In this document: piece by piece, positions 1 to 237 of the stretch | How the letters are laid out: each line of letters begins with the position of its first letter | Position numbering within the stretch: the stretch's first letter is position 1 | NCBI RefSeq assembly: GCF_003334315.1 | Contig: NZ_QOWR01000141.1 | DNA: 237 nucleotides | Strand: one strand, 5' to 3' | Source: Escherichia coli | GTDB taxonomy: Bacteria > Pseudomonadota > Gammaproteobacteria > Enterobacterales > Enterobacteriaceae | Program-made: the position numbers and the translations under genes | The notes under the pieces: generated by a model | The model's input: only the letters and a program-made list of their open reading frames with translations | What the model was told of the DNA's origin: nothing | The model's database searches: none

Positions 1-19
1 TGATAGAAACAGAAGCCAC
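1..19 (-). CDS. insA: IS1 InsA (transposition regulator and N-terminal part of the InsAB' frameshift transposase); first 6 codons only, CDS continues beyond the window
   Basis: GTG start at 19-17 on the minus strand, followed by GCT TCT GTT TCT ATC, i.e. (M)ASVSI, matching the InsA N-terminus MASVSISC. The start is 56 nt from the IS1 terminus, consistent with the known insA position in IS1. Only 19 nt lie in the window. Confidence 0.72.
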
Positions 20-26
20 TGGAGCA

Positions 27-45
27 CCTCAAAAACACCATCATA
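27..45 (-). promoter_or_regulatory. insA translation-initiation region: Shine-Dalgarno GAGG (30-27) and a candidate -10-like hexamer TATGAT (45-40) of the IRL-associated insA promoter
   Basis: GAGG lies 7 nt upstream of the GTG start, which is good spacing. TATGAT sits about 20 nt upstream of the start region. The insA promoter is known to overlap the IRL, but exact -35/-10 assignment here is my reading and not verified; no convincing -35 is seen at 17-bp spacing. Confidence 0.4.
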
Positions 46-51
46 CACTAA

Positions 52-74
52 ATCAGTAAGTTGGCATCATCACC
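52..74 (-). repeat. IS1 terminal inverted repeat (IRL, about 23 bp); InsA-binding end of the element
   Basis: The minus strand reads GGTGATGATGCCAACTTACTGAT, against the canonical IS1 IRL GGTGATGCTGCCAACTTACTGAT (22 of 23 matching). IS1 ends are established binding sites for InsA and carry an IHF site; I cannot place those precisely from sequence alone. Confidence 0.85.
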
Positions 75-237
75 GAATCTATATACTGAACCGGATTCAG
101 CGGATACTGATAAAAATTCCATCCCCCCTTCAGCCCAATCGGATCCTGAGTGATATACCTCCCCTGCAGCGGGTCATAATAGCGGTGGCGGTTGTAATAC
201 AGGCCGGACTCCTCATCATACTGCTGCCCCGGCAGGC
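53..237 (-). CDS. Rhs-family (YD-repeat) core protein, 3' end of the conserved core domain; ORF interrupted by IS1 at 74/75 and terminated inside it (probable truncated gene or pseudogene lacking its C-terminal toxin domain). 5' end lies beyond the window.
   Basis: Minus-strand frame starting at 235 translates without stops to [53 protein letters not shown], then S-VMMPTY and TGA at 55-53. The first 53 residues match the strongly conserved Rhs core C-terminal region ([10 protein letters not shown]...[11 protein letters not shown]...YQYPLNP) as I recall it from enterobacterial Rhs proteins. The other two minus-strand frames contain early stops. Codons 55-60 and the stop are IS1 sequence. Confidence 0.85.

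Follow-up and report, generated by a model that had tools for sequence, protein, structure and literature searches.

The question raised by this locus is what becomes of an Rhs protein when an IS1 element joins the last codons of its core, and in particular whether the product is a toxin-less Rhs core with a short new C-terminus that might still form a shell, or whether the gene is simply decayed. The window, by which we mean the whole stretch of DNA that was analysed, is the complete 237-bp contig QOWR01000141.1 of the draft Escherichia coli assembly GCA_003334315.1, and the locus as fetched is its exact reverse complement. It consists of two parts only, both read on the minus strand: an rhs core frame from 237 to 75, which passes directly into the left end of an IS1 element from 74 to 1. 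In our view, the window very probably holds a genuine IS1 junction at the end of an rhs core, by which the second of two DPxGL-type motifs is split and a functionless tail is added, leaving an IS1-insertion pseudogene. The features on which this reading draws are the following.

75 to 237, minus strand: 3' end of the rhs core frame (hyperconserved / Rhs-associated core domain), 53 amino acids and two bases of a serine codon; from translation and profiles.
131 to 145, minus strand: first motif, D-P-I-G-L, intact, with the putative first aspartate; from translation, its role by motif alignment.
74 to 94, minus strand: second motif (the PxxxxD-S part), cut after D-S, with the putative second aspartate at 79-77; by comparison with P-V-Q-Y-I-D-S-M-G-L of intact copies.
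56 to 73, minus strand: new C-terminal tail V-M-M-P-T-Y, six IS1 codons; from translation and codon coordinates.
53 to 55, minus strand: TGA ending the truncated rhs frame, IS1 nucleotides 20-22 in the left inverted repeat (IRL); from translation and codon coordinates.
1 to 74, minus strand: IS1 left end, with the IRL at 74-52 and then the leader as far as the first insA codons; 73/74 positions identical to the canonical element.
67, minus strand: IRL allele with A for the canonical C at IS1 nucleotide 8 (T on the plus strand), which turns VMLPTY into VMMPTY.
40 to 67, minus strand: sigma-70-like promoter match ATGCCA, 16-nucleotide spacer, TATGAT, directed towards insA; from a consensus scan only.
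1 to 19, minus strand: insA start, GTG at 19-17 followed by ASVSI; IS1 nucleotide 56, the same position as in the InsA ORFs of the loci L001 (strain ECONIH5) and L002.

The assignment of the shorter part to IS1 is based on several observations. Against the canonical sequence, the agreement extends to 22/23 positions within the terminal repeat (GGTGATGCTGCCAACTTACTGAT...), as is characteristic of an IS1 end, and the insA start lies at the expected distance from the IRL; the IRL and the right inverted repeat (IRR) of the element agree with each other at 18/23 positions. The exact 74-mer is present in 364 of 9314 IS1-bearing E. coli records, annotated there as IS1A or IS1B family transposase, showing that the A at nucleotide 8 is a real minority allele and not an error. 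The IRL begins at 74 with GGTGATG, matching IS1, which places the junction between positions 75 and 74 (...ATAGATTC followed by GGTGATGATG...), and the IS1 flanks in ECONIH5 and in an O25:NM strain diverge at the same terminal nucleotide. With 74 nucleotides, the window covers a small part of the element, the comparison IS1 in L002 being 768 bp long with a target duplication of CATCCCTGG. The sigma-70-like match is what we take to be the IS1 IRL promoter, and the allele at 67 forms the first base of its -35 hexamer, giving ATGCCA for CTGCCA. The window yielded no terminator-like site, and an Rfam search of it returned two chance-level matches only (E ~0.6-0.8).

Translation of the minus strand from 235 to 53 gives a peptide of 60 amino acids, and the codon coordinates bear out how the initial annotation had read its end: TCG (76-74), GTG (73-71), ATG (70-68), ATG (67-65), CCA (64-62), ACT (61-59), TAC (58-56) and the stop TGA (55-53), which lies, as had been proposed, inside the 23-bp terminal repeat. 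The serine codon is a hybrid, with TC contributed by rhs and G by IS1, and preserves the native serine, encoded by TCA in intact copies. As six residues, VMMPTY, are purely IS1-encoded and the hybrid serine may be counted or not, the description of a tail of 6-7 residues is correct. However, the tail is without a function of its own: the IRL contains stops in all three frames by nucleotide 27, which makes such a tail an unavoidable by-product of the element and not a feature in its own right. Depending on the offset, a frame entering the IRL reads GD(A/D)ANLLI and stop (offset 0), VM(L/M)PTY and stop (offset 1) or an immediate TGA (offset 2), and a stop within six codons was reached in ~31% of shuffles of the 74-nucleotide segment, so that its presence is no statistical surprise. 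All three outcomes are found on natural rhs genes, namely in the window, in the protein cluster P0013, which ends in ...YQYPGDAANLLI and stop, and in ECONIH5, which ends in ...DSMGR and stop. More generally, other fusions of IS1 to an open reading frame at the IRL resemble the window in that the host frame ends within 0-8 IS1 codons; only the frame, and hence the tail, differs, and the nucleotide-8 allele exchanges L for M.

IS1-Rhs fusion peptides are scattered through protein databases under the plain name 'RHS'. The P0013 cluster comprises eight sequences, one of them labelled Salmonella, ending in ...NFYQYPGDAANLLI and stop (IRL, frame 0), and a further deposited partial Rhs protein (P0011) ends in ...SGNDSNLLIVFYVQIMPDDFVMQLHR, a read-through into the IRR. 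We also considered a translational fusion of rhs to insA, which share strand and frame in the window, but rejected it, as the stops at 55-53 (TGA), 43-41 (TAG) and 31-29 (TGA) intervene. Transcription of rhs, if there is any, would run on into insA.

The longer part of the window clearly belongs to the Rhs core. It scores 73.4 bits against TIGR03696 (Rhs-associated core; cut-off 32.5) and matches the NCBIfam model RHS_core (NF041261) with E=5e-32 over model positions 1205-1259 of 1261, an extent of 55 model positions for which the whole-protein cut-off of NF041261 is out of reach. Over all 163 of its rhs bases, the window shows 100% identity to rhs copies from K-12, E2865, ECONIH5 and an O25:NM strain. 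Intact copies run through this region as ...QYIDSMGLASKYG..., in which the codons GAT TCA ATG GGA CTG encode D-S-M-G-L; in the window, 17 residues separate DPIGL from D-S, and IS1 takes the place of M-G-L. The ancestral gene thus possessed two DPxGL-type motifs 17 residues apart together with a cleavage site, which is no longer true of the present allele. What these motifs do has been described for related proteins. Rhs1 of P. laumondii has two DPLGL motifs with a spacing of 17 residues, and its C-terminal cleavage site lies behind them; its catalytic aspartate belongs to the second motif, and the substitution D1338N abolishes cleavage (PMC8636562). For RhsA of P. protegens, a consensus PxxxxDPxG(W/L/F) has been reported, with D1324 and D1346 as the catalytic pair and the chain ending directly after the motif (PMC8765631). 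Judged by motif alignment, both aspartates that match the published catalytic pair would be retained in the window (145-143 and 79-77), while the predicted product lacks the final MGL of the second motif, the scissile bond behind it and the toxin.

Accordingly, the initial annotation was right in describing the product as lacking the conserved cleavage site, since the comparison with intact copies places IS1 where M-G-L should be and the scissile bond is gone, and equally in calling it toxin-less: the frame stops within IS1 at 55-53, and neither a tip nor an immunity gene is attached to it. Its further suggestion that the core was left without the DPxGL segment holds in part. The second motif is indeed cut after D-S, but the first, DPIGL, is intact, and both aspartates are kept. 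In another record, L011 (JAWVHL010000001.1), the stretch 2930-2980 carries five G where the window has six (123-128; six C on the plus strand), which frameshifts rhs just before D-S-M-G-L and results in a call of 1235 amino acids; the same split is present in L018, where the gene ends at 2977 and is followed by a 155-aa tip ORF. The five-G run in L011 may be a homopolymer sequencing error and not biology.

Of 5426 complete E. coli genomes, 3560 carry a single copy of the toxin tip that is proper to the core end of the window. This tip begins, in intact copies, with ASKYGHLNNGG..., comprises 155 amino acids and is followed by ybfC; it is a ybfO-type tip as in K-12, and its sequence is identical in K-12, E2865 and ECONIH5 (L004/L005: tip 6783-7250, ybfC 6217-6786). 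From its position, YbfC is presumed to be the immunity protein of the tip. The tip matched no Pfam or NCBIfam family and YbfC no NCBIfam family, and the activity of the tip appears to be uncharacterised. Two arrangements of the module occur. In the K-12 type, the full-length rhsC bears another tip and is followed by ybfB, a 1.5-kb orphan that carries the tip ('missing N-terminus') and ybfC; in the E2865 type, a full-length rhs of 4.2 kb carries the tip directly and is followed by ybfC. The module was an orphan fragment in 43/59 cases and the end of a full-length rhs in 16/59, the 59 being those full-length matches that were reached by sampling the ranked 3560 tip-bearing genomes at even intervals, classified by product name, which tracked the arrangement in the five records on which this was checked. 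Orphan tips of this kind are without start sites and probably silent (PMC2935791; PMC3032704). They have been described as 'C-terminal displacement' (Jackson et al. 2009, PMC2935791), and the K-12 pair ybfO-ybfC shares with the window core-end bases that are 100% identical and the type of the tip which the window has lost. The direction of the damage differs, however: in orphan tips the 5' end was removed by recombination and the tip kept, whereas in the window the 3' end is cut by IS1.

We attempted to tell an orphan from a main copy by the 163 rhs bases, but this attempt failed as they are identical in both kinds, and therefore the window is assignable to neither. The last 77 bases of the window (161-237) correspond exactly to the stretch that is common to the main rhsC and the downstream orphan of K-12-like loci, which begin to differ at 160; this suggests a de Bruijn unitig with k=77 that is bounded by repeats. 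For the 74-nucleotide IS1 side to agree with k=77, a second IS1 copy in that genome would have to share the three flanking bases.

To what extent does this junction recur? Megablast with window positions 45-105 against 5426 complete E. coli genomes did not retrieve the exact junction, the near-miss in ECONIH5 being the only one, and scanning for the exact pattern gave zero matches both in a set with one genome for each bacterial species and in JGI metagenome contigs. The 60-aa peptide, compared with 5.8 billion proteins, matched short Rhs fragments only, none of them with the tail of the window, and a literature search on QOWR... / GCA_003334315 returned no paper. The other end of the IS1 copy and the downstream part of the assembly were sought through predicted ORFs: the hypothetical ORF MESLPIDSMGL... 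was not on record, and the 155-aa tip ORF, present in 869 index blocks, was too common for tracing.

The closest counterpart is the rhsC::IS1 allele of ECONIH5 (NZ_CP026202.1, L001 7300-8090). There, IS1 sits in a full-length rhsC of 1247 codons, 8 bp downstream of the position of the window junction, is flanked by a 9-bp target duplication, CAATGGGAC, and has the tip and ybfC on its far side; PGAP labels this gene 'incomplete; missing C-terminus'. As in the window, the IRL faces the core end in the same orientation, the insertion falls within D-S-M-G-L and the same tip and ybfC are separated from the core. The two differ in frame, ECONIH5 having nothing IS1-encoded beyond one hybrid codon, and in the IRL allele, which is canonical in ECONIH5. 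In addition, the context of ECONIH5 is visible, with a full-length core and the duplication, whereas that of the window is confined to 237 bp. As the IS1 of ECONIH5 sits in a full-length rhsC, such insertions evidently occur and are tolerated. The P0013 fusions add another IS1 breakpoint, after YQYP, in the same region of ~90 bp, and altogether at least four IS1-related breakpoints lie within ~90 bp of the core/tip boundary, a count for which clonal relatedness and the tolerance of insertions elsewhere are confounders. In 145 complete genomes, a similarly oriented IS1 left end was located within ~620 bp of an rhs core end, the span within which pieces are joined by the search; the same confounders apply. 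Taking these genomes and the further breakpoints together, IS1 insertions around rhs tips are commonplace. In L009 (CP084683.1, 2868-2925), a 55-nucleotide remnant of an IRR is fused to an rhs core end at ...ATCACTCAGGATCC (window ~154) and adjoins a porin gene; its breakpoint falls within the Rhs hyperconserved region, lies at an internal IS1 position and is probably a deletion.

How the junction arose can be weighed on this basis. A 237-bp record made up wholly of two repeats, the last 77 bases of which are a stretch of two rhs copies, might be a chimeric mini-contig formed by the assembler, but we regard this as highly improbable: the break is located exactly at the terminal nucleotide of IS1, the two sides have no common sequence that could mislead a de Bruijn assembler, the contig is listed under two samples, and a repeat-bounded unitig is the expected outcome for a real junction between repeats. 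A break at the exact IS1 terminus, as seen in other genomes, is what transposition would be expected to produce and a random chimera would not. Alternatively, the window and ECONIH5 might go back to one insertion, after which the window lost the 8 bases AATGGGAC adjoining the IRL and acquired an A for C at IRL nucleotide 8. The rhs flank is identical in both, the ECONIH5 duplication CAATGGGAC starts with the last rhs base of the window (C at 75), and the junctions are exactly 8 bp apart. On the other hand, the IRLs differ at nucleotide 8 and a common origin would require a small precise deletion together with a point change, as opposed to one extra insertion. In addition, the IS1 of ECONIH5 encodes an InsB' that is divergent relative to the IS1 of L002, although the IS1 stretch of the window is too short for typing, and the flank of the window, TATAGATTC, is itself a plausible AT-rich 9-bp target. 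A single event is therefore a rather improbable account, and two independent insertions into one AT-rich spot are the likelier one. Among the points that weigh against our reading, a single IS1 end is on record, so that the junction could be the endpoint of a deletion or inversion and not a simple insertion; the 237 bp from two repeat families provide no tie to a particular rhs locus, and the junction is seen in this one contig and in none of the other genomes searched.

A separate matter is what kind of rhs copy was interrupted. We consider it the probable case that the piece is a silent downstream orphan, a 'dissociated C-terminal tip' as K-12 ybfO, devoid of the N-terminus and of most of the core, so that IS1 struck an already incomplete gene and no toxin-less shell exists. 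The orphans of K-12 and O25:NM match the window in each of the 163 rhs bases, 43 of the 59 sampled tip carriers have the 1.5-kb 'missing N-terminus' fragment after rhsC-ybfB, and such tips have been described as without start sites and probably silent. Yet the same 163 bases are identical to the full-length copies of E2865 and ECONIH5, the only comparable IS1 allele, that of ECONIH5, resides in a full-length rhsC, and the prior is drawn from complete genomes and not from the source strain. Conversely, a full-length and expressed rhs would give rise to a cargo-less, non-cleavable PAAR-Rhs cage, which would fold and might have a structural role in the T6SS spike. About one in four of the sampled genomes carry the tip on a full-length rhs, and, with the truncation at 1259 of 1261 RHS_core positions, the whole core would be present. 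Such a product could be stable and even useful, as engineered RhsA without its toxin domain is still processed at the N-terminus (PMC8765631) and, according to the summary given in PMC8651079 of the work of Donato et al. (2020), E. cloacae requires the Rhs cage to assemble its T6SS efficiently. In most of its copies the module is an orphan, however, and the upstream sequence, the promoter and the expression in the source strain lie outside the record; we therefore look upon an expressed cage as unlikely. The allele is private to the contig of the window, and hence there is no sign of selection. A still more far-reaching proposal would be that IS1 cut a full-length, expressed PAAR-Rhs between aspartate and scissile bond, that the cage is retained for T6SS spike assembly without the cost of the toxin, and that the AT-rich core/tip boundary, with its cluster of breakpoints, is a recurrent toxin-off target of IS1; this appears to us barely credible.

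An IS1-insertion pseudogene is thus the reading we favour, and the course of events may be pictured as follows. IS1 would have reached the last codons of the core either through simple transposition or because an IS1-mediated rearrangement ended there. The bases just before the junction, TATATAGATTC, are AT-rich, and the G+C content falls from ~0.55 to ~0.38-0.43 on the approach to it. IS1 prefers AT-rich targets, and this run-up fits the preference, so that simple transposition into TATAGATTC may be assumed. If a simple independent insertion took place, the far end of the IS1 copy would be flanked by TATAGATTC followed by AATGGGACTGGC.... The interrupted module would normally have continued from D-S-M-G-L into ASKYGHLNNGG..., the K-12 ybfO tip, and then into the presumed immunity gene ybfC. 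By splitting the second motif after D-S, IS1 has uncoupled the tip and removed the bond for autoproteolysis, and the rhs frame then reads six IS1 codons up to the TGA that occurs in that frame of every IS1 IRL. Toxin delivery from the module has probably been lost.

In E. coli, disruption of rhs genes by IS elements is routine, and the case of the window is already known in kind. GenBank already lists the product of the contig as a partial RHS protein (RCQ20512.1), and annotation pipelines flag IS-disrupted rhs genes as partial or as pseudogenes. For the scanning of genomes, mini-contigs built from two repeats represent real junctions, but these are free of context, and claims about their products cannot be judged from them. 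With regard to the Rhs proteins themselves, the consequences depend on the copy that was hit. If it was a downstream orphan, for which the prior is about three in four (estimated, as is its counterpart of about one in four for a full-length copy, from complete genomes and not from the source strain), nothing shell-like would be possible. If it was full-length, as the shell proposed in the initial annotation presupposes, the product would be a cargo-less PAAR-Rhs cage with both protease aspartates and no cleavage bond, and, if also expressed, it would be the natural equivalent of engineered toxin-less or non-cleavable Rhs constructs. It would then resemble RhsA-delta-tox and the D1324N/D1346N variants of P. 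protegens (PMC8765631) as well as D1338N of P. laumondii Rhs1 (PMC8636562). Those are deliberate constructs in prePAAR effectors with established T6SS partners, whereas the product of the window would keep the aspartates and have the substrate bond removed. The mildly instructive point of the locus lies in the site chosen by IS1, which is located between the aspartate that would be kept and the cleavage bond that is lost.
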